From Pristiophorus japonicus (lineage: Eukaryota): a stretch of DNA of 64,000 nucleotides. The notes beneath the pieces are model-generated. The model worked only from the letters and a program-made list of their open reading frames with translations, was not told the origin of the DNA and did no database searches. Location of the stretch: positions 147,560,001-147,624,000 of the forward strand of contig NC_091984.1 in the NCBI RefSeq assembly GCF_044704955.1, in the 5' to 3' direction. The position numbers and the translations under genes are program-made. Each line of letters starts with the position of its first letter. Position 1 is the stretch's first letter. Below, piece after piece: positions 17,838 to 64,000 of the stretch.

Positions 17838-19744
17838 TGTAGGTGGTTCTCTCAGCCGTACAAAAAACGCACCTCCTACTACAAGTTCTGGACGATAGGG
17901 ATTATATGGATAGATGAGACTTGGACACACGTTTTTCGGGTTCAACCGTATTGTGTTGAATAAGATGAACAACACCACTCATAAACAGTGCAAAATAGTA
18001 CAACCCTGGCTTGTCCAATAAGCCCTGCCGTGCTAAGTTAGCACAGCTTAATAAAAGGACCCTCCCATGAAATAAACGAACACAGGACCCCCCCTTGGGT
18101 TTGGTTGGGACTTACAATCACCCCCTCACACAGTTAAGTGGTCTTGTGGATGTGTAGGCGCAGGTAATATGCTCACACGGATTGCCCGTTGTCTTGCTTG
18201 CAGCTTCTTCCTGAACATCTCACTCCTGGGCTTTTTCATGGCTTTTTCCTGGGCTTTTCTGAAGCTTTTACCTGAGCTTTTACCTGAGCTTTTTCCTGGG
18301 CTTTTTCCTGGGCTTTGTCCTGGGCTTTTTCCGGAGCGTTCTTCCTCCTGAGCTGGAGTTTGTTGCAAAGTGGCTCCTTATATCCCCAAAACTCATCACC
18401 TTTCCTCCCGCCAATACTGACCGATGGATTGACTACGGTGATTTGTCTGGATCCCCTCTCCCCGTAGAGCCTTTGATTCTTTGTGAAAAATGATGTTTTA
18501 TTTTCCCGCTCCCAGACCTTGCGTCTGGAGAGACAATGGGTGCTGATTACTGGATGTCTGTCGTTTCCTGAGTTGATGGCCCCCATTAGCAGGTAATGGG
18601 TTTCGATCACAAACCGATCTTGCTTAACCGGCTTATCTCCTGGAAGACAATGGGCCGGCCATTTCCTGCCTTGCACCAGTTTGGGTTGGGACTGAGTTGT
18701 GACTGTGCTTTAATAATGCGAAGGCACAGTGTCTCTGAGTTACCTCTCGGGGTATTGTTCCCAGGAATCACTTTAGATGGTGATGACATCAATGGGCCTG
18801 GGTTCCCTGCCACCCAGCCTGTCAGTGTGAAATGTCCGGTTGGATATGAATGCAGCTAAGTGCCACCCCACAAGCTCGCCAAACAGTACAGTTCTTTCTT
18901 GTGAATCTGGATTTAAGGATTTAAAGTATTGTTGATAGAAATAGCCAGAAAGTTGGGGCTACAATCCCCCCGCTGATATTTTGTCACCAAAACCAGAAAT
19001 ATCTCGAATTGCGTCGTCTTCTGCTGTGGGAGGTGCATTGTGGGTCCATTGCTGATCAATTACACCCGGGCTCCCGTTTCTTCTGATTTCCTGATTAAGA
19101 CAAACATAACAACACCACCGTTCTGTGAGCGGTTTTCCCCTCCACAGGTTGGGCTTTCATTATTTACATATATATACAGTTCGTTCAGGTGTTATCGAAT
19201 GCCCCAGTTAAAATCTCTCCTGTTGGGGCATCTTGCGGCTCACAGCCAGTGAGTAAGGAGGCGTCCACGGCGCCCTAGGCCATGGTATCCGACTGTTTCT
19301 CCTTACCGTCTCGCCCTCTGGGTCATCAGCATCGTCCCACACCATGGGAGGAAGACCTGCATCCACCAGGCTCATTATCATGCCCTGGTTTCTCTTTGCC
19401 TTTGTCTTCCCCCCATCGGGGTTAAACAACTTACATTGGTTGATATGGCAGCATTTTGTATGTTTCGGGAGTCTGACTGCATATCCCATGGGGCTGGCCT
19501 TATCTACGATGTTATAAGGCCCCATGTACAGTGGCTCGAATGCCCCCACTCGGGCACAGTTCCTGAACATTACCTGGTCTCCCACCTTCCACTCGTGACT
19601 TTTCCGGGGCTCGAGTAGCAACCGATGTTTCCCGGTGCTGGTTCCTCAGGTTACTGGCTGCCTGCCAGTGAATCTGTTTTCAAACATCAAACAGATTCTG
19701 GACAAACCTGTCCCGGTTTACCTCACGGTCATGAGCTCATGTGA
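17838..19744 (-). mobile_element. Retrovirus-like element X: 1.13-kb 3' LTR (17838-18963), PPT and integrase C-terminus
   Basis: Minus-strand GCGGGGGGAT|TGTAGC...CCTACA. ORF 19208-19621 (VGDQVM..EPLYMGPY..HINQCK) is paralogous to 22090-22515. Confidence 0.75.
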
Positions 19745-20798
19745 TGTAGGGGGTTGGTTTTCCATGCTACTCTGATTCATAGACCTCAGGAATTACAGGA
19801 AAGACTCCACGTAATGCAAAGTTTAGGCTTAAACCCAACTGTTATTTTGTGACACAAAAAACAGCTAAACATTACAGAACAAGACTTCTTAGAGATTGAC
19901 CGAAGACATACAATCGCCCATCCAGCCAGTTGCTACTGTTGTCCATTGTCGGCTCGTGGAGCGAGGGAAGGTGTTGTGGCCCTGCTGCTGCTTCGTGGCT
20001 TTAGTTCATTGACCTGCTGGTCTGAGAAGTTTCTTCGATCTGTTCTTCCTCTCTCTGAACCTTTGTTCTCAGCTCTTACAGATATATCCATTCGATTATA
20101 CACATCTCCTGCTGGGCTGCCTTTCAGTTAATGCAGCTGGATGAGTCTCGATGGCTGTGGTGATGGGTCTGAATCTGTTCGGACGGCTACAATTCACACA
20201 TGGAATCAACGGGGCAAAAGATAACTGCTTATCTTTTGAGCCCCGTTATCCAAGAATGCACGCCTTGTGGGATCCTTTATTGTCCTGGGTTTTTGCAGAC
20301 TTGGAGTCTCCAGAGGGAACTGGTTTTCCCCTCCGGCCAATGGGCTCCTCTGCTTGATTGTATCAAACCCTTTGTCTCGATGTTAATCGGGTCTCGCTGC
20401 TGACCCCAGAAATCACATTAATCAGTGATCAGTCACCACCTGCCCCAGGCTGGTGCTCTTTCTCCTGCCCAACAATCCCAAAAGTTTTCTTTTAAGCCAT
20501 TTTAGTCCATGGCCTCTTGCTGTACATCGATCATGAAACATATAACCTTTACACTTCCCCCTTTAATATGTCTTGTTATAAACTCAGAGATATTACACTA
20601 GGTGGCATCTTCTTCTTTCCATTGAGCTCTTTTGGGTGTATTGCAGTCTTCAGTCAAATCTCCATATTACATACCTTTTACAACAAAACAATGTTTGGCC
20701 TTAATCCATCTGACTTCAGTTTTTATTTTTACAAACACTTTTGCCTTGGTTGATTTTAATAACCCTTCAAGATTCCCTTCCCTCATCTTTTGCTTTAA

Positions 20799-21867
20799 TT
20801 AACAGGACAAGACGAATAGATACAACACTATTACCAACTGTACAATTACTAACAAGTGTGATACAATTCGAACCCAGGAGGGGATCTCAATATTGAGTCC
20901 CACATCCCACTGTGGAGGGGCAATCATTTCTTCAATTTCCGCCCTTACTTTTTCGTTCTTTTGGTGTAACATGTAATAATGTTTCTGGGACAACTCGATG
21001 TTCTTTAACAGTTCAGTCAAATATTCGGGTCACGGTGGGATATAGTATCCAACACGCGATATGTATCCCTGGAGGTTCGTAACGTATCATTGACTGTAAT
21101 ACGGATATGTTTGTGGTCTGAGATCGGAATTATTCTTTCTTGTGCTACTTGTGCCTCTACCTGGGGTTTGAAACAAAAGGATGAATCTTTCAGCATTTTA
21201 GGGAGAGGTTTTAATCTGCTTGCTATCAGTTCGGTCGCATTTACTGCCTTTGGTCAAGATCACACAGGAATCAAAACCCTGCGTCCAATTCATTCCTGAC
21301 CCGGAATCCTGCCATTGTCATTTAAAAACAATCCCCACACCTCCCCTGCACTTGTGGCTAGATCCAACCACACAGACATAAATCCCTTGTTCCTCCTTCC
21401 ACCACTTTTCCCAACACTATTTCGCCCCTTCTCTTGTTCCTGTGGTCCGCCTGTTTGAGTTATTACCCAGTTTCTCCCATTCTGTGGATGCATTAACTTT
21501 TCCCCTGTCTGTTTTCTGTAACCACCACCACCCTCCCATGGGGGTAATCCCTTTGCATTCCAGACAAACTCGTCTCCCCTCTCTCACCCGTACATTCCTG
21601 GCCGTGATGCCTGGGGCAGGACACTGACACCTCCCCAAGTTTACCCTTGGTTTGTCTGGAGTACTTGGTCGAATTTGACCTTAACCACCCTGGCCAGCTC
21701 CCAGTGTGAGCATAGGCGTTTGTGCCCTTGTTGCTCCGTATGGCTCCCCCTTGAGTTACAGTGGGACCGGTTCCTCCCATACACCCATGTGTAAGGAATG
21801 TCTCGGTGTCTCCCCGATCTCCCAATCCTTTAATAATAATGGCCATCCACAGGCCTATCCACAACAT
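20799..21867 (-). pseudogene. env: env-like membrane glycoprotein of element Y (frameshifted, probably internally deleted)
   Basis: Signal-peptide-like MLWIGLWMAIIIKGLG, heptad-like ELLKNIELSQKHYYMLHQKNEKVRAEIEEM, and TM segment WVRIVSHLLVIVQLVIVLYLFVL. Lies between integrase and PPT, with a splice acceptor at 21902. Confidence 0.72.
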
Positions 21868-22089
21868 CCACCTCCTCTCGTACCCTTGGCTCGATTCGCT
21901 CCTATAAAGACAAAAATGAAAGAAATACCTTTGCTCTGTGGGGCCTCCCCCTCACAGGTCCTCCTTCAGTTATTCACAAATGTACATAACTCCTTTTTAC
22001 AATCACTGCTTCCCTCTCCTTTTATCCCGATGCTTGGGCTTACGGAGGCTCGGGGGTGGAGATGGAGGAGGTGTCCAGGGCACCCTAGG

Positions 22090-25000
22090 TCACAGTACCT
22101 GACCACTCCACCTTACTGCTCCGTCCCTTACTTCTCCATCCTCATCATCCCACAGTATTGGTGGGAGGCTGACACTGATCAAACTCATTATTGTTCCTGG
22201 GGCCTTCGCCCGCTTTTTACTTTTCTCTCCGGGGTTGTACAGCTTACACTGGTTTATATGGAACCATTTTATATGTTTTGGCAGCTGGATCGCGTACACC
22301 ATAGGGCTTGCCTTGTCTACAATGCTATATGATCCTTTGTACAATGGTTCAAATGTCGCTATTCTGGTATAATTCCTGACCATTACCTGATCCCCTACCC
22401 TCCATTCCTGTGTAACCCGGAGTTCCAGCAGCAGTTTATCCTGCTGGTGCTCGCTGCCCATATTGTTAGCTGTTTCCCAATGCAGCCCCTTCAGAGTATC
22501 ATACAGATCTGGCAAACATGTCCTGTGTGACCTCTTTAACCTGCGTTTCAGTCAGGACTGGTGCTAGGATATGAGTCGGGATCCTCATTAGTCTCCCTGT
22601 CATCATCGCATGTGGGGAGTGTCCCGTACTCTTAGAGAGACTGGCTCGGTGGCTCATCAGTATTAGGGGTAGGGTCTCATTCCATTTCTTCAGGGTATTT
22701 CCTATCTCCTTCCTAAGCCTCTCTTTTAAGGTCCGGTTTGTCCTCGACTGGATCTAACGATTGGGGGTTATACGCCACATGAAATTTCCCCTGTATCCCT
22801 AACAGCTTTAGGGTGGCCTGCATTACTGCTCCGGTGAAATGACTCCCTTGATCTGATTCCACTATCAGGGGCAGTCCCCATTGAGAAAATACTTCTCGCA
22901 CCAGAATCTTTGCTGTGACTATCGCGGTGGCCCCGACATGGAAAAGCTTCAACCCATTTTGTAAAGAGATGTATTAACACCAAGCACTATTTATTGCCTC
23001 TGCCTGAGGTGGGCAGTGGCCCAATGAAATCTATCTGTATAGATTGCCATGGCCCCTCTACCCTCCTCGTGTGTCCCAACGGAGCCTTCCTCGGTGGGGG
23101 TGTGGATTGTTTGTGGCACATACCAGACAATTCTGGCAATAATCCCTGACATCACTTCTAAGCCCGGGCCACCATCCCACGGCTTCTACTTTATTCCACA
23201 TTGTTTCTGGCCCTGGATGACCAGCTCCTGGACCCACATGCACCAGCTGCAAGAATTCTTCCCTGCACTGCCCTGGCACGCTCCAACTATCTCCATTGAA
23301 CAACATTCCTTGCTTTACTGCTATGTCTGCAACTCCCAAAGGTCCCACTGCAGACTTCGCGTCTATTTTGTCCCTAATCGCTGCTCTAAGGTTTGCATCC
23401 CGTAGCTGAGCCTGTTTTAAATCAGGCGGCAATGGGACTTCTTTGGGCCCCTCGCTGCCTGTTACAGCCGTGATCTCTCCACAGTGACATGGGTCCCAAG
23501 GTGTCCCTTCTCCTGCCCCTGTTTTAGCCAGTGTGTCTGCTTTCTCATTGCCTTCCCACTTGGACTCTGTCTTAGATTGTGCTTTGACCTTTTGGATGTA
23601 GTCACCCTTCTGGTCCGTACCCTTGACGTCCAAAATGACTTTTAACAACAGAACCATCACCAACCATTTTCCGTTTGAGGGCTTAAACTATTGCCTCGCC
23701 AATATGGCTAAATACTCTGTACAGGAGTTAGAAATGAACATGGAGTCTGAACATATCGTATAGGGAGTTGGGAATTCGTTCGGGTGTGTGACTACATACG
23801 CTACCGCTACTAGCTCGGTCTGCTGAGTACTCAAAGTGTTGGGGATTATATGGCTTTCTCTATCACTGACTCTGGATCGTAAATCCCACAGCCTGTCTTT
23901 CTCTCTCTGTTTATTACTGAACTGGACCCATCTACACAGATGTCCCTGCCTGCCGGGTGTTCTCCTGCTCAGAACACTGAACACACATGAGCTGCCCCCG
24001 GATAAACCAGGCTCGGGGCTAGCTTTGGTTCTCCTGGCCTCTCGACCTTCAGGTCTAACTGAGTAAGCAACAATGTCCAGCGGGCAATCCTGTTACTGCT
24101 CACTGTCCCATCTTTCATTCTACCGTCCAGTAGCATTTGTGTCATTGTGTGACAGGTCAGTAAAGTTACTGTAGCTAACCCTGTGAGCGACCGAAAATGC
24201 TTCACTGCCCAAAATATTACTAACAGATGTCGTTCGCAATTCGAAAAGCTCTTTTCTACTTCGGTGAGAACTCGGGAGGCGTAGGCCACCGGTCTCAGCT
24301 TGCTGTGTCGCTCCTGGAGTAACACTGCACTCAAACTGTCCCCAGTCATTGCTACCTCCAGACTAAAGTCCTGGTCCCCATTTACTGCTCCCGATGCTGG
24401 TGCTGTCTGTAACACCTCTTTTAACCAAATGAAAGTTTCCTGACAAGTCTCACTCCATTCCCACTCTACTCCTTTCCTAAGAAGCCTCAACAAAGGAGCT
24501 GCCATGGTTACATATCCCTCTATGAATTCCCTGCAGTGACCCGTTATTCCCAGAAAGACCTTATTCCAGACACGTCCTTAGGAACAGGTAGTTCCTGGAC
24601 TGACTTTCTCTTAGCTCCATCTATGGCTCTCTCTCCTGCCCCAATGGTCAAACCTAGAAACTGCACCTCCTCTTTGCCTATTTGAGCTCTCTGGGGATTT
24701 ACTTTAAAACCTGCTTCTTTCAACAAATGCAGTAACTCACTCAATAATGGCCCGTGGTCCCCCGCACTTTCGGAGAATAACAACAGGTCGTCCACATATT
24801 GGACCAACCGATCTGGCTGACTAAAACCGTTTAATGCCTCGGCCATACTTTGGTGAAAGTTCGAGGGACTGTTGTGAAACCCTTGTGGAAGACATGTCCA
24901 CATATACTGCTGACCTTTAAAGGTAAAGGTAGATTTATACTGGTCCTCCCGTCTCAGGGGAATGGACCAAAACCCGTTTGAAATGTCCAGCACTGTGAAA

Positions 25001-25866
25001 GTTGTTGTGGCCGCAGGGATACTCCCGATCAAATCCGCTACCACTGCTACCGTGGGCGCACAGGCTGGAATATTTTTATTCAGGATTCGGTCATCTACCG
25101 TGGCCCTCCATGAGTTATCGGGCTTCTTTACTGGTCATAGGGGTGAGTTTACATGTATGGCTATGGTCCTCAACACACCTTGATCCACCAGGGAATTTAT
25201 AGCAGTTTCCAAATCCCTTTCTGCTTCCCGGGGAAAATTATACTGTTTCTGGGGTCGTGTCATCGAATCCCCATCTATCTTCACCTCTACCCGAGATACT
25301 TTCCCGCAATCGTGCTTGTGCATTGCAAACGCATCTATATTCTCCCGTACATACCCTTGATACTGGGCCGGAATGTTATCGACTAATCCTTCTAAATCAT
25401 AACTCCCTTTCGGTTTCATCGTGCAGGTGCTGCCTTTGTCTGCACTGTCGCTGGGAATCACTACGATCTCTCCCATCTTATCTGCATCAACTGCCCGCCA
25501 TAGACAATTGTTTTCCATACCCACTAAGGTGTGGTGTGCTAACATGTAGTCGGCCCCGAGAACTCCCAAACCGGGCTGTTCCCACTTCATTAAAATGCCC
25601 TCCCATTTCGTTATGTTCGGTCCTAACTTTACGGTAAAGGGTTTCCACACTGCCCCAGCCTGCTCATTACCCGTAAAACCCACCAGTGTAAATGGGACTC
25701 AGCTCGACCACGCGGAAGTGGTCAGATTCGGTGAGTGGACAACCGTGCTAGAGGCTCCTGTATCTACTAGATCCCTTCTCCTAACTGTTTCCACCTTCAC
25801 ATCCACACATGGCCTGCCCCACCCATCATATATGAGCAGACACAGGTATTCTGGCTGGGCACACCG
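22090..25866 (-). pseudogene. pol: pro-pol of element Y
   Basis: Protease LVDTGAS (about 25750-25770); RT LPQGFHNSP and YVDD (24544-25044); catalytically degenerate RNase H (23969-24505); second RNase H (CVDGSS, QQTEL, CSDS, GNEKAD; about 23530-23945); HHCC integrase and SDQGSHF core. Confidence 0.9.
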
Positions 25867-27467
25867 TCACAGTGGGGGTGCCGACACATTGGGTCCCTTT
25901 TCTCCCACTGCTGCGTCCAGCTTTCCTCCACCTGTGCCCATAACCTGCTGTAATGTGGCCACTAAAACCTGCACTGGGTCGTCGGCTACCTTCTTCTGGC
26001 CTTTTCCTGCCTCAGCACCTCGTACCCTGGCTTCCCTCCTTTAGAGAGCCTACAATCCTTGCTCCAGTGTCCCAACTTCCCACAGTTAAAACATTCACCT
26101 TCAGATCGACCCGCATTACCTCCCTCTTGTCTCCATTCTTTCTATGGCCTAACCTCTCCTTTTACTTCGTGCACCTTCCCGTTTAGTTTCTCCTCCTCCC
26201 CTTGCCTAGACTTAAAGCTAGAGTTAATCTTCTCAGCACCCCTGCCTCTGTATTCTGGAGATGGTCTGGGTCAAACCATACTTCGACCTTTGCTCTGAGC
26301 CGTGGCAAACTGTTACCATTACGGTTCTCAGCCAATGGTCCCTGGGTTCCCCTATTAAATCTGCCCGCTCCAGATTTCCTCCAGCGGCCCTTAAATAAAT
26401 CGCCCACAGTCTGTCTGCAAACGTATCGGGTGATTCGTTTAGTTGCTGCCTAGTCTGTTCTACCTGCCAGAACGGACTACCCTGACTGTACCCGAGCACT
26501 GCCATCATTTGCTCCTTTAAGCCCTGTGGGGTTTCTGCACCTAACTTGGTGGCTGTCGACAAGCTCTGATAAAGCTTCCCCTCCAGCGAGAGCAGTGTTA
26601 GCTTCACTTTCTCCTCCTCGCTGCAGTTATTGATACCCGCTATCTGCTCTATATTAGTAAAATGAACAGAGACATCTCCTCCTTGCTTTAACTGTACTAC
26701 ACCCGTCAGCATCTCCTGCAGCTGAAGCGGTGTGTATGGGATCACTAGTCGCTCTGTAATGGTGCCGGACCACCATTTGGGGGGGTGGGCTGAATTTCTG
26801 CTGTCTCAAAGGACACATAGGTTTCGGGGGTCCCGGTGCCTCGGGAGCCGGCCGATGCTCGCTATACTCGGGCCCATAATCTGACTCTTTCTCCTCTGGA
26901 TCCCAACCTTCCTCGGCTGTTCCGGGTGCCCTGAGACAAACCATCCCTTTGGCCCCGTCTAACTCTGCCGTTAATTGGTGGATCTTTTCCTTACAAGGTC
27001 CGTGATCTGTTCTCGCGTAACCCTGTTTCTGAGCTACCTGATAGGCTATCGACTCCCCTGAGCTGGTCCTCTGCCTCTTTGGCTCTTTCTAAATGCCTTT
27101 CACTTTGTTCAATGTGGATCTGCTGCTGCTTTTTGCACTCGGTCACCTGGCATTGTAAATACTCAAAGTGATTCCACGCCGTTTCTTCCTTCCTACCCTG
27201 GTCCTGCCTTTCCTTCTCCACACTGCCTACCTCGCCCTTTAACCCTTTATTCTCCTTCTCCAGCTTTCCTACCCTTTCTCTCAACAGTTGTGTCTGCTTC
27301 TGCAGGCACATGAGCCAAACCTCCTTCTCTTTTGACCCTTTGTGGTTACTACTGACTGTCCACTCTGCCGCATTTTCCTGCGGATCCCCAGAGTGCAGCA
27401 TTTCCTGTGCCCATGGCACTGAAATGTCCAATTTGTTGCCTATATATGCAGCTACCTTAGCCTCCAT
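25867..27467 (-). pseudogene. gag: gag of element Y
   Basis: Coiled-coil N-terminus (26991-27467), capsid-like region (26233-26745) and zinc knuckle CFNCGKLGHWSKDC (about 26051-26092); homologous to 61041-62640. Confidence 0.85.
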
Positions 27468-27619
27468 GGACTTCCTACAACTGCTCTAGCCGCGGACTCT
27501 GCCATGTTTTGCTGCGCTGAGTCCATTCCACTGCCTCTGGCTGAGAAATTCTCCCTGACTACCTTGGTGTCCCCTGAGACCACCTCGCAGTGACCTGTGG
27601 TTCCTGTTACTCTGGCTTC

Positions 27620-28210
27620 TCTCTGTGGCTACCCTAGTCGACCCGAGACTACTCCGGCCTGTCAGAGACTTTCTCTCCTGGTCCCCTAGTCGCCCTTGAG
27701 ATCACCCTTGGCCTCCCTGAGACTATCAGAGATGACTATTGGCTTTGCTCTGTGACTACCCCAGTCAACCGAGATTATTCCAGCCTATCCGAGACTGTTT
27801 CTCTCCTCAGGCTGCCCTGGCCGCCCGTGAGATTATCCCTGGCCTCCCTGAGACCCCTGCGCAGACTACTTGTAATTACTTCTCCCGGTGGCTGCCCTAG
27901 TCAGCCGGAGCTCTTCGGCTACCCTGGTCCCCCTTGAGATTCCCTTGGTCTCCCTGAGACCCCTTCGCAGACTACCTGCGGCTTTCTCGGTGGCTACTTT
28001 AGTCAACCCGGGATTACTCCAGCCGACTCAAGACTGTTTCCTTCCTCTGCTGGCTGCCCTAGCTGCCCTTGAGAGTACAATGGTCTCCCTCAGACCACTG
28101 CGCAACTACCTGAGACTTCTTTTCTCAGTGGCTACCCTAATCGACAGAGACGACTCAAGCCTATCAGACCCTGTTACTCTCCTTGTCGCCCTAGCCGCCC
28201 TTGAGAAGAT
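27620..28210. repeat. Degenerate 100-138-bp tandem repeat (5 copies) in the 5' leader of element Y
   Basis: GTGGCTACCCTAGTC...CCCTGAGAC recurs at about 27625, 27752, 27888, 27990 and 28128. Confidence 0.8.
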
Positions 28211-28665
28211 CCTTTTCGACTACCTTATCCGACCTTAGATGTAACCAAGCTTCCCTCGGGGTTTTTGCTCTGGTATGTGTCCGTGATACTATACCCAAAG
28301 CCGAGGTCCTGCCGCGGTCACCAATTTCTGTAGGTTGTTTGTTTTTCACTCTACTCTGATTCTTAGACCTGGGAACTTATAGTGGACAAGGACAACACGT
28401 GGCACAACATTTAGGCTTCACCCAGTGTCAGTTTTATTATGCATAAAAACCGTCGAAAACTACAGGACTAGACTTCTGAGAGAAATCGACTGAAATCATA
28501 CAATTGCCCTTCCTGGCTGTAGCTATTGTCGGTTCGTGGTCATTGGTTCCGTGACCGGTTGGTTCTTTTTGTGGCCGTTCTCTGCAGTGCTGTTCCTTCT
28601 GTGTATGTTCTGTACAACATGTCTTTCCGTTCGTTCATCTGTTCATTCTTTCATCAGAACTGAAC

Positions 28666-46512: not shown

Positions 46513-46841
46513 CTACGCACATTCTGCTCTCCTGACTCCCTTGCTGAGGGGAGAGGAGAGGCTCTCGTGGGTGAGGCTGCAGGAGAATCTGGCGTTGGAC
46601 TCCCAGTCGGAGCCAGAGAGGGTCAGCAGGCTGCTGACACTGTAGGTGTTGTCCGAAGCTCGCAGGTAGTCGCTGGTCTGGACCCCGGCCGAAATGGTCG
46701 CCCCGTCCTTCTTCCACTCCACCTCCACCGCATCGGGGTAGAAATGATCGGCGAGGCACACCAGGGTGGCAGTGCCCTTGGTCGTGACCTCCTCCGGGGA
46801 GGGGGGCAGCAGGGTCAGCGTGGGTTGTGTATTCCCTCGGC
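46513..46841 (-). CDS. IGKC: Immunoglobulin light chain constant exon, kappa type
   Basis: Acceptor CCCTTTCAG|GC. Open frame (S)RGNTQPTLTLLPPSPEEVTTKGTATLVCLADHFYP..W..YSVSSLLTL..FSCSLTH..RRAECA*. C1-set Cys/Trp present, plus the penultimate interchain Cys. Confidence 0.96.
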
Positions 46842-47071
46842 CTGAAAGGGAGGAGAAGGATGTTTAATAGGTGTATATTAGTGTGTGTGTGTGTGTCACT
46901 GTGGGTGTTTCCGTGTGGGGATAATTCACATCTGATAACGGAGAGCTGGGTTAATGAACTCCTGGCTGGCGATTAACCATTAGAGGGGAGCAACACTAAT
47001 TCTTAATCTTATTTTCCTCGCTTGATAAGTTGAATCGAAATATAAATGCATTTGATGTTAAGGTGATTAAA

Positions 47072-55500: not shown

Positions 55501-55823
55501 GTGGCCCTCTCAATAGTGGGGGGTTTGTGAGATTATTTGGATTGAGGACACAGGACCACCCAGTGTCTCCGTGCTGTCTGAATGTACAGAGTAGAGCTGT
55601 GAGATTGTCAGTGATGAAGACACAGCCCCAACTCTTCTCTGACCCACTCCATACTTTTCCAATTCACTGCAGCTTCCAGCTAAATATTCCTGCCGTCACT
55701 CCCATCGAGCTGTGTGTCAGTCATGTGTAAAACCGTACAGGAGGTGGGGCTGTGTGTCCATTATTATATATTATATATAACTGTGGGGTGAGTCAGTACA
55801 GAAGGTGGGGCTGTGTATATTGA

Positions 55824-55851
55824 GGTTTTTGTCCGGCTGTGTATCACAGTG
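55824..55851 (-). other. V recombination signal sequence, 12-bp spacer
   Basis: Minus strand CACTGTG, ATACACAGCCGG, ACAAAAACC (perfect nonamer). V12/J23 is the kappa-type arrangement. Confidence 0.96.
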
Positions 55852-56150
55852 TAGAGGGAAGCTATACCCTTGCTGACAATAATAGTCCGCGACATCCTCG
55901 CTCTGCACGTTGCTGATGCTCAGGGTGAACGTGTTGGACTGGTAACTGCCGGTGAAGCGATCGGGGGTTCCAGTGAAACTAGTTGTTGCATCATAGATCA
56001 GCAGAGTGGGTTTCTGCCCAGCGTTCTGCTGGTACCAAGCAACATAATTGCTAACGGATGCACTGGCAGTACAGGAGATGGTTGCAGTCTGTCCCTCACT
56101 CACTGACAGCACCGGGGGAGACTGGGTCATGATGATGTCCCCACTGATAC
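55852..56150 (-). CDS. IGKV: Ig light chain V exon, kappa type (shark type III/NS4-like), germline unrearranged
   Basis: Acceptor CCCCCTCAG|[49 protein letters not shown], with no stops. Confidence 0.97.
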
Positions 56151-56337
56151 CTGAGGGGGAAATGGGGAAAGAAAGTGAAGTAAGCACTGTCATAGAAAGA
56201 CACTGTAAAATGAGAGATTGCTCGAGACACTGAGCTCTCCTCTAGTGTCAGCATTTGCCCTTCAATCACTGGTCAGTAGAGTTGGACAGAAATCGACAGC
56301 AGGGAGATATTAAACATGGAAGGAGAGAGATTTGTAC

Positions 56338-60045: not shown

Positions 60046-60966
60046 TGTAAGGGGTGGTTTGCAGAGGGTCAGCTTTCCCTTCTGACCTTATATGAACGGA
60101 TCCGAATCGCTCCCACACCCTTGGTTCTAGACACTGGAATTATGAAGGGACTGTGACAGACTTGGAGAGACAATCGGTTTCAAGGTAGGAAGCAGCTATG
60201 GCTTTATTGTGTTTAAAAAGTAAAAGGCACACCTTTAAGAACACACACAGACCAATACACACTGAAGGGTACAACACATTGAATAAAATGTCAAATTACA
60301 GCCTGTGGGGAAAAGAATACAGCTTAAACTCTAAATGAGGTAAAGAGGAGAATGCAGATACATTTACACAAGTTATCCCAGCCTCCCCCCTCCCAATTCC
60401 CCTAACTAACTAAGTTATAGCTCTGAGGGTTCAGGGGCTATGCTCACCAATCCCTTCAGACAGTTGCCGGTGAATCGCGGTTTCGGGGTTCGCTGCACTT
60501 GGCCTTCTAGGCGAGCCGTACCCAGGAACCGCGATTCACCGGCAACTGTCTAAAGGGATTGGTGAGCATAGCCCCTGAACCCTCAGAGCTCTAACTTAGT
60601 TAGTTAGGGGAATTGGGAGGGGGGAGGCTGGGATAACTTGTGTAAATGTATCTGCATTCTCCTCTTCACCCCATTTAGAGTTTAAGCTGTATTCTTTTCC
60701 CCACAGGCTGTAATTTGACATTTTATTCAATGTGTTGTACCCCTCAGTGTGTATTGGTCTGTGTGTGTTATTAAAGGTGTGCCTTTTACTTCTTTTTAAA
60801 CACAATAAAGCCATACCTGCTTCCTACCTTGAAACCGATTGTCTGTCCAAGTCTGTCACAGTCCTTTCATAATTCCAGTGTCTAGAACCAAGGGTGTGGG
60901 AGCGATTCGGAACCGTTCATATAAGGTCAGAAGGGAAAGCTTACCCTCTGCAAACCACCCCTTACA
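60046..60966. repeat. Long inverted repeat made of two LTR 3' halves (arms 60046-60482 and 60527-60966; 44-bp loop)
   Basis: Arms are reverse complements with about 11 substitutions and one 3-bp indel; outer ends are TG and CA. Confidence 0.95.
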
Positions 60967-63900
60967 TAATGGCAACCCAGATGGGACACTGGTACAAGGG
61001 ACGTGATAAGAGAGAGGCTGGTTTCAGGAAACGAAGCAAAATGGAAGAGGAGATTTCCTCGTATGTGTTTAAGAGGGTAAATGTGGCTAAGGAGTGGGTA
61101 CTTGATCTATTGTATGCTGAGCATCCAGAAGATGCTGCAGCTCAATGGACCGAGAGCAAGGACCATAAAAAGTCGACAGAGAAGGCCATTTGGCTAATTT
61201 GCCTTCAGCAACAGATCCGGCTTCTAGATGAGGAGAATGAAAAATTAAAGGGAGTATTGAAACAGGCAGAAGAGAGGTCCAGCGCAAGGGCCACAGTCGG
61301 GGAAAGGCTATGGACAGAGGTGGGACAGTTAAAAGAAAGTAGAGAGCTCACTAAAGAAAGGCACAAAACCCAATTGGACCATTTACAGTGTCAGATTATT
61401 GAAGCCAAGAATAGCGAACTGGCATTGCGGGAAGAGAATTCCTGCCTCGCCAAGCAAGCTAAAGAGTACGGGCAGAGGGTGAGAAACATTCAGGTAGCCT
61501 ATAAGGTAGCCAGTACCAGGGAATTTGAGGCAGGAGACCACGGCCCCTGCCAGCAGCAGATCCAAAGCTTGAACCTTGCTCTATCCCAGGCTAAAGGCAT
61601 GGTGTGCCTGATAAACCCGGGTTTAGCCCAGAAACACCTGGTTGAGCAAGGAGAAACCCCTCAGTCACCGCCTGCAGCTCCCAGGAATGGCCCTGGGCAG
61701 CAGAGGTGTCAGCCAGAGTGCGGGGCAGGCAAGGATTACACCGGCATTCCCGAGTTTTAACTCAGCTTGGCAGCAGGGGAAAGAGGGCAAGCCAATACAA
61801 GAAGGGCCGGAACCAGGGCCAATGCACCCAGTCCGGCAGCAGAAGTTTGGCCCACCTGATGCCAATGGGGCAGCAGGACCCCTAGAAAGCAACTTCGTAG
61901 TCCCCCACGACACCCAAAAACTGAGGGCTATGATAGGCCACCTAAGTAAGCTCACCCAACAGAGGGATCCCTTGGTACACTTCCTGGAAGTGGAACACAC
62001 AGGGGATATTAATGGGTGCGATGATTCAGAGCAGGCGAAGCTGTTGCTCTTCTCACTAGACACCAAGCTGTGCCATTCCCTCTCTGCAGACAGCAGAAAG
62101 GGGCGAAACACGTACGCTACAGTTAAGGAGGAGGTTCTAGAGGCCATAGGTATGAACGACGGGAGTCCTTTCTCCCGAGTGGAGAAAACAGTGCAGCTCT
62201 ATGGGGAGACTCCACAGGCTTTCGCCGACAGGTTGTGGCCGGTCTACGAAAGGGCCTGTAGTGGGGTTCTTGACCGGGCCCACCTGACCCCTAATGAGCT
62301 GGCTCACTGGCTCCGCAGCCTGGTGGCAAACAGCTTACCTGGAGTAAAGGCAAAAGCCTAGGTCTGGTTCGATCCAAGAGATCCCAGAACCACCGAGTAG
62401 ACAGTGGTTAGACAGTTGACCCTGGCTTACTGGAACGGTGGAGGGACAGAGGAGCCCTCCTCTAAAGGGAGGGTCCATGAGATTAAACCCAGCCAAGGCA
62501 AGAGAGAGTGGCATCAGGAAGGTGGGAACCCTCCCCATAAAGGGGACAAGTGTTTTGGGTGTGGGAAAAGTGGGCACTGGAGGAAGGACTGTAGGAACCC
62601 ATGGAAAGAGACTAAGGGAGAGGCCACTTCAGCCCCAACCCATAAGGCCGGGGCAGGAACACCGAGTACGATGCCTGGACGAGACCGTGCGTTACGATGG
62701 AGGTGGAGAAAGTGAAAGGGACCTACCTGCTAGATACTGGTGCTTCCAGCACCCTTGTATATGCAGATAACCCAGCTATCTCACCTCTATCGAACGGGGT
62801 CCCGTACAGTCTCGTGGGGTTCACAGGCAATGAGAAAACTGGTTCGTTTTCCATCCTGCTCACCATTCAGTTAGGGACACTCAAAACCAAATGGAAGTGT
62901 GTCCTGATGAAATGGGAGCAGAAGGGAAAAGGGATCCTGGGGGCTGATTTTATCATTGGCCACCAGATCCTAGTGGATCTCAGGAACCACTGTCTATGGG
63001 GAGCCATAGTGACTGACAGGGAAGGTGAGGTGGCAGTGATCGCAGAAAAAGGGGCCAAGGGAACATTGTGTACCGTGAAGCCAAAGGAGGGTTATGACTT
63101 GGAATTACTGGTCAGTAACACCCCAGTGGAGTACCAGGCATATGTACGGGCACACCTTGCAGTATTCGCCACCCACAAACATGACTGTGGCAGGGTAACG
63201 GGGGTGGAAGTTAGTATAAAAGGGGACCCCATGACCCGACCACAAAAGCAATATAACTTCCCCAAGGAGGCAGAGGCAGACCTGACAACAGCGCTGGGAT
63301 TACTGGTAGAGCAAGGGGTGTTAAGACCGATAGCAACCCATGTGAACTCTCCACAACTCATGGAGGGCCACCGTGGACTATCGAGTACTAAATAAGAATA
63401 TCCCTGCCTGTGCACCCACTGTAGCAGCCGTAGCGGATCTCATGGGGAGTATTCCAGCATCCGCGACCAATTTCACAGTGCTGGACATTTCAAGTGGGTT
63501 CTGGTCCATTTCTTTAAAACGGGAGGACCAGTACAAGTTCACCTTTACCTTTAAGGGCCAACAATACATGTGGAACTGTCTTCCCCAAGGCTTCCACAAC
63601 AGCTCCAGCATTTTTCACCAATGTATGGCGAACTGTTTAAAGGGCTTTAGCAGACCCCAGCAGTTGGTGCAGTATGTGGATGACCTGCTCCTGTTCACCG
63701 ATCAGGGGGAGGAGCATGGTCCACTGCTGGCTGAGCTGCTGGAGCTGCTAAAAGAAGAAGGGTTTAAAGTAAACCCCAATAAGGCACAGGTCGGCCAGAA
63801 GGAAGTCAAATTCCTGGGGTTGACTCCGCGCTGGGGAAAGGGCCATACCGCAAGAAGGGAGGCAGTACAAGAGTTACCAGCCCCCAACACAGTGACAGGG

Positions 63901-64000
63901 GTAAGATCCTTTCTAGGACTCACCGGGTACTGCAGAGACTTCATTGAGGATTATGCAGCCACCGCAGCCCCTCTGCTCAGGCTCCTACACAAGGGTGTAG
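60527..64000 (+). mobile_element. Retrovirus-like element Z (same lineage as Y): partial 5' LTR, PBS, gag, pro, RT; runs off the window
   Basis: LTR ends TTACA at 60966; PBS TGGCAACCCAGATGGGAC at 60970-87; gag from 61041; CFGCGKSGHWRKDC, LLDTGAS, LPQGFHNS and YVDD motifs. Confidence 0.9.

Follow-up and report, generated by a model that had tools for sequence, protein, structure and literature searches.

A provirus with a broken env gene

The window, by which we mean the whole stretch of 64,000 nucleotides that was analyzed, is shark-like, LINE-rich DNA. It contains an immunoglobulin (Ig) light-chain V exon at 55771–56241 (Pfam V-set, E 2e-17) and a C exon at 46513–46863, belonging to a light chain that we take to be kappa-type. 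On the minus strand lies a provirus in the order gag and protease remnants, reverse transcriptase (RT), tether, RNase H, integrase, and env, flanked by LTR-like ends. It is one of the many copies left by a shark endogenous retrovirus (ERV), and it is dead. The gag and protease remnants (25135–27485) were placed by position and by likeness to protein P0016, with no specific Pfam match, and the leader 5ʹ of gag (27613–28214) consists of diverged repeats at a spacing of 100–140 nt. The RT (24544–25248) has a YVDD motif and matches PF00078 at E 1e-30. The tether, which is RNase H-like, and the start of a second RNase H occupy 23688–24577 (PF17919, E 6e-21), and the end of that RNase H is followed by a broken integrase with zinc-binding, core, and C-terminal SH3 parts (22090–23687; PF17921, E 9e-18; PF24626, E 1e-4). 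The second RNase H was assigned by its motif and by a PF00075 match on the 71%-identical P0016. As the LTR-like ends downstream of env (19745–19939) and upstream of gag (28329–28529) are only 70% identical over 203 nt, they are not a matched pair. A tRNA scan found no tRNA.

The plus strand carries a second retroviral element of the same broad group (60873–64000), with gag, protease, and RT, which runs off the end of the window and whose DNA is 68% identical over 941 nt to the pol of the env-bearing provirus. At its start is a large, near-perfect inverted repeat (60046–60966) that looks like a fold-back duplication; its arms match at 96% over 278 nt and at 97% over 175 nt, around a loop of 24 nt.

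The env gene, also on the minus strand, begins with a signal-peptide-like hydrophobic segment (21820–21870), placed by its sequence and by a peak in hydropathy that a sister family, described below, shows at the corresponding position. It continues with an N-segment of about 65 aa (21619–21819) that alignment shows to be kept in all relatives, and then with an Ig-like domain of about 100 aa (21321–21618), defined by translation, alignment, and profile and fold searches. In the window, this domain is broken by a frameshift near 21610, which the first Ig strand straddles, and by a stop at 21417–21419; a further stop follows directly after the domain at 21318–21320. The start of a linker from the Ig domain to the fusion core (21193–21320) then meets an internal deletion junction (21183–21192), where about 1.15 kb has been lost: copies L021, L024, L025, L028, and L029 have 1.1–1.2 kb more. 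By comparison with dispersed copies elsewhere in the genome, the cleavage site, the fusion peptide, and the greater part of the fusion core went with the deletion. What is left is a C-terminal remnant of Env (20739–21182) with a heptad-like helix, a transmembrane segment (TM) at about 20802–20873, a short tail, and several stops, 42% identical over 126 aa to the C-terminus of the sister family.

A preliminary description of this DNA had reported an Ig-like motif on the minus strand at 21366–21593, read through one stop, with two cysteines 61 residues apart. Our translation agrees with both statements: cysteines fall at residues 10, 13, 60, and 74, and the B- and F-strand cysteines are spaced by 61. 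The location stood and the size did not, since the real span of about 21321–21618 is larger. The window env frame with X at stops (330 aa) had no Pfam match at E ≤ 1. A hand-written Ig pattern matched twice in the six frames of the window, at the env site and at the real light-chain V exon, and in 0 of 100 shuffled windows; because it was composed after the sequence had been seen, it serves as a sanity check only.

Copies, relatives, and fold of the Ig-like domain

A protein search of the genome with the Ig-like domain gave 150 scored matches among 7184 candidates, at 72–100% identity and on many contigs. Natural frames of dispersed copies extend from the Ig-like domain past an RxKR site and into a helical region, over 476 aa in L064 and 345 aa in L068. 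A second, younger family, here called the sister family, is 60–66% identical to protein P0004 (150 scored of 8679 candidates) and 92% identical to a sawshark protein, which makes a sawshark the likely host; about 35 of its 150 scored copies have stop-free frames of at least 790 aa, counted by eye. All four sister-family frames that were fetched (791–840 aa) hold the Ig cysteines 61 apart, an RQ(K/R)R site, and one TM, and a hydrophobic signal-like start is present in the one frame examined. In sister copy L101, RQKR lies at 346, a cysteine cluster at 569–650, and the TM at 753–776. The natural frames of the two families establish the fusion of the Ig domain to the rest of Env; the preliminary description had proposed recovering intact copies to see whether they join it to a signal peptide and a TM, and they join it to a signal-like segment, a cleavage site, and a TM. 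The order in unbroken copies, in one reading frame, is a signal-like segment, the ~65-aa N-segment, the Ig-like domain, a linker, a core with RxKR, a hydrophobic peptide and a helical region, and a TM. Separately, we observed that the sister family (L101–L104) is young and high-copy: many of its env frames, about 800 aa long and spread over many chromosomes, are unbroken, and pS among 25 copies is about 0.04.

Beyond this genome, a representative search (1.84 billion representatives, E ≤ 0.001) returned 10 matches, seven of which carry the module or part of it: three skate proteins (P0003, P0006, P0009), sawshark P0005, whale shark P0007, and P0004 and P0008. The whole module is found in skate and sawshark proteins, and the whale-shark gene model is partial. 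The other three matches were a mollusc hemicentin (E 3e-5) and two unrelated repeats. Across the alignment of the seven (44–87% identity to the first row), five cysteines, the C-strand Trp, and G-I-Y-x-C are invariant, and the first cysteine of the Ig domain is absent in P0005 only. The Cys/Trp/Tyr motif, expected to be a family feature if the domain were real, is kept across families and species, the two Cys, a C-strand Trp, G, and Y being invariant in 7/7 rows. The P0005 model also joins nine C2H2 zinc fingers to the Env signal, N-segment, and Ig domain, which is probably a read-through annotation artefact. No related locus was confirmed in metagenome and viral contigs.

We regard it as very probable that the env domain has an immunoglobulin fold. 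Its signature is present in both families: a cysteine spacing of 61, within the 55–75 expected, a C-strand Trp, and (D/E)xGxYxC. The Pfam profile Ig_3 matched unbroken copies of the window family at E 0.0012–0.0022, below the 30-bit cut-off, and the sister-family domain at E 5.7e-5, with a best score of 24 bits against that curated cut-off; it matched 7/7 aligned rows, with a best E of 4.6e-4 and nearly full coverage of the profile, I-set matched 2/7, and V-set had no match to the env domain of either family. A PDB search with the seven-row profile found CD8-alpha best, at E 2.8e-4 over profile positions 2–91, with six sequences under 0.001 and, among the 50 rows listed, 45 that are Ig-family by name. 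A single copy of the domain matched TCR-alpha in the PDB at E 0.007, and a PDB profile of the N-segment plus Ig domain with untrimmed homologues reached its best Ig row at only E 1.1. In the Atlas, V-set, I-set, and ig clusters scored 0.91–0.93, and the ten best family matches were all in the Ig clan.

Structure prediction gave a low-confidence model (mean pLDDT 48; 46–76 across the Ig domain) in which six strands follow each other in Ig order and the F strand is preceded by a helical turn, whereas the G strand is not confidently formed. In a wide fold search with this model, 50 of the 50 matches listed were Ig-type by title, with rmsd 3.0 over 96 residues and Z up to 7.3, which is below the tool's distinctive level, as a Z under 8 may reflect a common arrangement. 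With Foldseek, neither PDB nor BFVD gave a match at E ≤ 0.001; the PDB rows listed were Ig-type chains, and the top BFVD row was a poxviral CD200-like protein (E 0.04). The support for the fold is thus consistent but moderate. The Pfam and structure-prediction checks proposed earlier gave a divided answer, with no match for the window peptide, Ig_3 below cut-off for natural copies, and a weak model whose strands are nonetheless in Ig order. Of the earlier label "V/I-set domain", the Ig-superfamily part is upheld by profiles, fold searches, and motif; as to the set, the Pfam matches were to Ig_3 (7/7) and I-set (2/7), with none to V-set. The domain carries six cysteines in unbroken copies, for which the strand positions would allow a canonical B–F bond and two extra bonds, the strand assignment of the extra cysteines being our assumption.

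The Ig domain was under purifying selection, like the integrase. In 23 of the 24 dispersed copies its pN/pS was 0.38, whereas column shuffles gave 0.72 ± 0.15, none of 200 shuffles being as low, in a set where many copies were chosen for open frames and where pairs are non-independent owing to shared ancestry. Comparison values in the dispersed copies were 0.44 for the integrase (14/24) and 0.35 for the fusion core (20/24). Among 11 copies chosen by DNA likeness alone, the Ig value was 0.44 (1/100 shuffles). In the young sister family, the Ig domain, at 0.49, was indistinguishable from shuffles (16/100), and the core was distinguishable (0/100).

The fusion core and the type of virus

Env shows the features of an F-type fusogen: a signal-like segment, a basic cleavage site, a fusion peptide, heptads, a Cys-rich region, and a TM. 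In the Atlas, the core matched Baculo_F and Fusion_gly clusters at 0.93–0.95 with low recognition (1744). Pfam and PDB sequence and profile searches of the core returned nothing relevant, and a fold model from a natural 267-aa stretch had a pLDDT of 39. On the low-recognition Atlas matches, the layout, and motif likeness judged by eye, the core is likely a paramyxovirus-F-type fusion machine. The CX6CC motif is absent, with no adjacent cysteine pair among the 23 cysteines of L101 and no TLV_coat match. Gamma-type Envs of fish and shark ERVs have a furin site and TM in common with this Env, and, in the accessible text of the three reports, surveys of them select for ISD and CX6CC (10.1101/2021.11.23.469661; 10.64898/2026.05.06.723177; PMC12813294). 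The Ig-headed shark Env, having no CC pair, would therefore be missed by such surveys, which suggests that a very abundant envelope class escapes gamma-type screens of shark genomes.

The RT looks most like that of snakehead retrovirus (SnRV). Compared by eye, the window RT shares about 64 of 140 positions with the RT of SnRV, taken as printed in the supplement of PMC7947760, the corresponding counts for feline foamy virus and Loki-Lch being 55 and 48. The nearest database Pol proteins come from amphibians and coelacanth, which are described as hosts of SnRV-like ERVs in the sections available of PMC4422223 and PMC4977317. An RT tree of 48 hand-picked sequences of the 120 matches listed plus the window RT, with one picked row dropped as too short and with no labelled SnRV, foamy, or Loki rows, places the window RT among retroviruses (100/100), with Pol proteins of amphibians and coelacanth as its neighbors (91/83, not starred). 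In their accessible portions, PMC4422223 and PMC4977317 make no mention of an Ig domain in the Env of SnRV and SnRV-like ERVs, including elephant-shark CmiERV lineage I, from which the present Env is set apart by description rather than by Env sequence. Short DNA motifs in the CmiERV supplement (PMC4422223) had 0 matches and were uninformative.

Lokiretroviruses were considered as well. As far as the available text of Wang and Han (PMC7947760) describes them, their Envs resemble the shark Env in having a signal, a similar core-start motif, RxKR, a hydrophobic fusion peptide, a coiled coil, and a TM, and their Pol likewise has a tether and RNase H. However, in 22/22 published lokiretrovirus Envs with a visible N-terminus, the core directly follows the signal (by eye), whereas in the shark Env about 225 residues intervene, including the Ig-like domain. 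In diagnostic stretches, their RT is of CPFGY type and the window RT of LPQGF type. According to the same partial source, lokiretroviruses were present in 0/6 chondrichthyan genomes screened (PMC7947760). A lokiretrovirus identity was dropped, as RT identity and motifs, judged by eye, point away from it. The best reading is an SnRV-like retrovirus with an F-type Env, and this would suggest that SnRV-like polymerases can be paired with an Env of F type.

Possible roles of the Ig-like domain

How retroviral F-type fusion proteins find a receptor, and how their scaffold acquired attachment modules, is the question on which this Env bears. On balance we lean towards the Ig-fold domain being the host-cell attachment head of a likely F-type fusion machine in the Env of shark and skate ERVs. 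In the accessible sections of PMC11468914, F is a minimal scaffold that accepts receptor-binding modules N-terminally or internally, paramyxoviruses have a separate attachment protein, and foamy Env has an inserted receptor-binding domain (RBD); the simplest reading of an Ig head at the N-terminus is therefore an attachment module. Cleavage at RxKR would leave the Ig module on the surface subunit, at the trimer tip, where it might bind a cell-surface partner, either a host Ig-family receptor or, via a basic surface, heparan sulfate, and this binding could bring the fusion core close or trigger it. The excess of K/R in the domain (21 K/R versus 9 D/E in the window family, 17 versus 12 in the sister family) would permit glycan binding. 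The N-segment, with a predicted-structure pLDDT below 50 and 29/61 positions identical between the two families, could equally be the binding part, and lokiretrovirus Envs evidently managed without such a head.

Like foamy Env and the class Ib fusogens treated in the available text of PMC11468914, the shark Env would combine an F-like scaffold with its own add-on module and no separate attachment protein. The foamy RBD, however, is large, has a novel fold, and is an insertion ahead of the furin site, whereas the shark module is small, Ig-like, and N-terminal; in being N-terminal it resembles the add-on module of the coronavirus spike (PMC11468914, same sections). Domain II of F also has an Ig-type fold, but it is part of the core and distinct from the N-terminal Ig-like domain of the shark Env. 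On a more tentative reading, in which the head is also a captured host domain, entry into cells would depend on one Ig domain recognizing another, and this Env would join foamy Env and the coronavirus spike as a third solution for equipping the F scaffold with an attachment module. With no such module in Loki Envs and an unrelated one in foamy virus, a small, separable Ig-like head offers a single-domain test case. The head is conserved in skates as well as sharks, and its presence in young copies whose frames are unbroken makes the question testable. Our search of open-access literature, which included the accessible text of 10.1101/2023.10.26.564294, PMC10072453, PMC9040795, PMC12440569, and PMC10699275, brought up no paper that describes an Env of this kind with an Ig domain; Repbase and subscription papers, outside that scope, could hold the family.

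As for origin, we propose, more tentatively, that SnRV-like elasmobranch retroviruses long ago took an adhesion or immune domain of the Ig superfamily from a host and made it the receptor-binding head of an F-type fusogen. The preliminary description had also inferred capture and proposed a search for the closest host IgSF gene; no donor was found in the representative search or in the V and C exons of the window. Among the 10 matches of the 1.84 billion-representative search, there was no host donor gene for the Ig domain, the sole host Ig match being the mollusc hemicentin, and the top PDB and Atlas matches vary between queries. Derivation from the neighboring light chain was rejected: the V exon matched at E 0.051 over 28 aa, and the C exon had no real similarity. 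For the capture of Ig domains, the closest earlier case is nectin3 of crocodilians. In CrocERV31, as described in the portions available of PMC4299795, an ERV likewise carries Ig-superfamily domains under purifying selection, but there a whole, recognizable host mRNA (about 76% identical) replaced env, whereas in the shark one highly diverged domain, with no recognizable donor, sits within a complete env.

Large DNA viruses carry Ig-domain decoys, and the shark domain, displayed on virions or infected cells, might similarly engage a host immune molecule such as MHC or an inhibitory Ig-family receptor, with entry left to another part of Env. We consider such an immune decoy or modulator unlikely. 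The best PDB matches, CD8-alpha and TCR-alpha, and the poxviral CD200-like protein at the top of BFVD would suit it, but these matches are weak and query-dependent and so mark the fold, not the partner; in every relative found, moreover, the Ig domain is fixed within the fusion protein, with no separate ORF.

Somewhat less probable again is a purely structural part, in which the domain is a spacer, a folding aid, or a shield of the pre-fusion trimer, with receptor binding left to the N-segment or the core. Between the two families, identity of the Ig domain (42–48%) is close to that of the core (42–55%), as would be expected under structural constraint; the N-segment, no less conserved, would be placed farther outward, and there are sequons in and around the Ig domain. 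Yet related F-type Envs fold without any Ig domain, as in 22/22 of the published Loki Envs with a visible N-terminus (PMC7947760, available text), and the comparable add-on of foamy virus is a receptor-binding domain (PMC11468914, accessible sections).

It is very unlikely that the domain is no true Ig at all, being a Cys- and Trp-rich viral beta-sandwich that is Ig-like by convergence or chance. This would account for Pfam scores below threshold, a low-confidence model, 8–10 Trp, four cysteines beyond the canonical pair, and no host donor, but four different methods (Pfam, PDB profile, Atlas, and fold search) give Ig and nothing else, and the canonical Cys, Trp, and acid-x-G-x-Y-x-C are kept at 44–51% identity.

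The copy in the window is itself a dead passenger, carried along when light-chain clusters were duplicated. The copies closest to it lie on C8 at 143.4–148.8 Mb and on C1231, C113, and C53, and light-chain C exons occupy the same C8 interval, C1231, and C113. Several copies keep the window's 25-kb distance, and therefore one insertion was duplicated along with the clusters. That the nearness to an Ig gene is coincidental, as first surmised, agrees with this duplication and with copies of the domain on many chromosomes. We give almost no credence to host co-option, by which the cluster copies would encode a short secreted protein of N-segment plus Ig domain used by the shark: a stop directly follows the Ig domain in 24/29 cluster-linked copies and the Ig frame is unbroken in 18/29, but the stop is shared because the copies were recently duplicated, 11/29 are broken, the window copy among them, and an Ig pN/pS of 1.63 among 20 distinct cluster copies (175/200 shuffles lower) gives no sign of co-option.

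Across C8 143.4–148.8 Mb, C1231, and C113, we also observed at least 40 light-chain C exons at 98–100% identity, many paired with a provirus copy. The light-chain cluster expansion is recent, and shared proviral lesions could date its order. On the minus strand of the window, an integrase C-terminus of a related element (19208–19744; 73% over 204 nt) adjoins the downstream LTR-like end, with an ORF region downstream of it at about 18200–19100. The same integrase C-terminus next to the LTR-like end is common to cluster copies L032 and L033.
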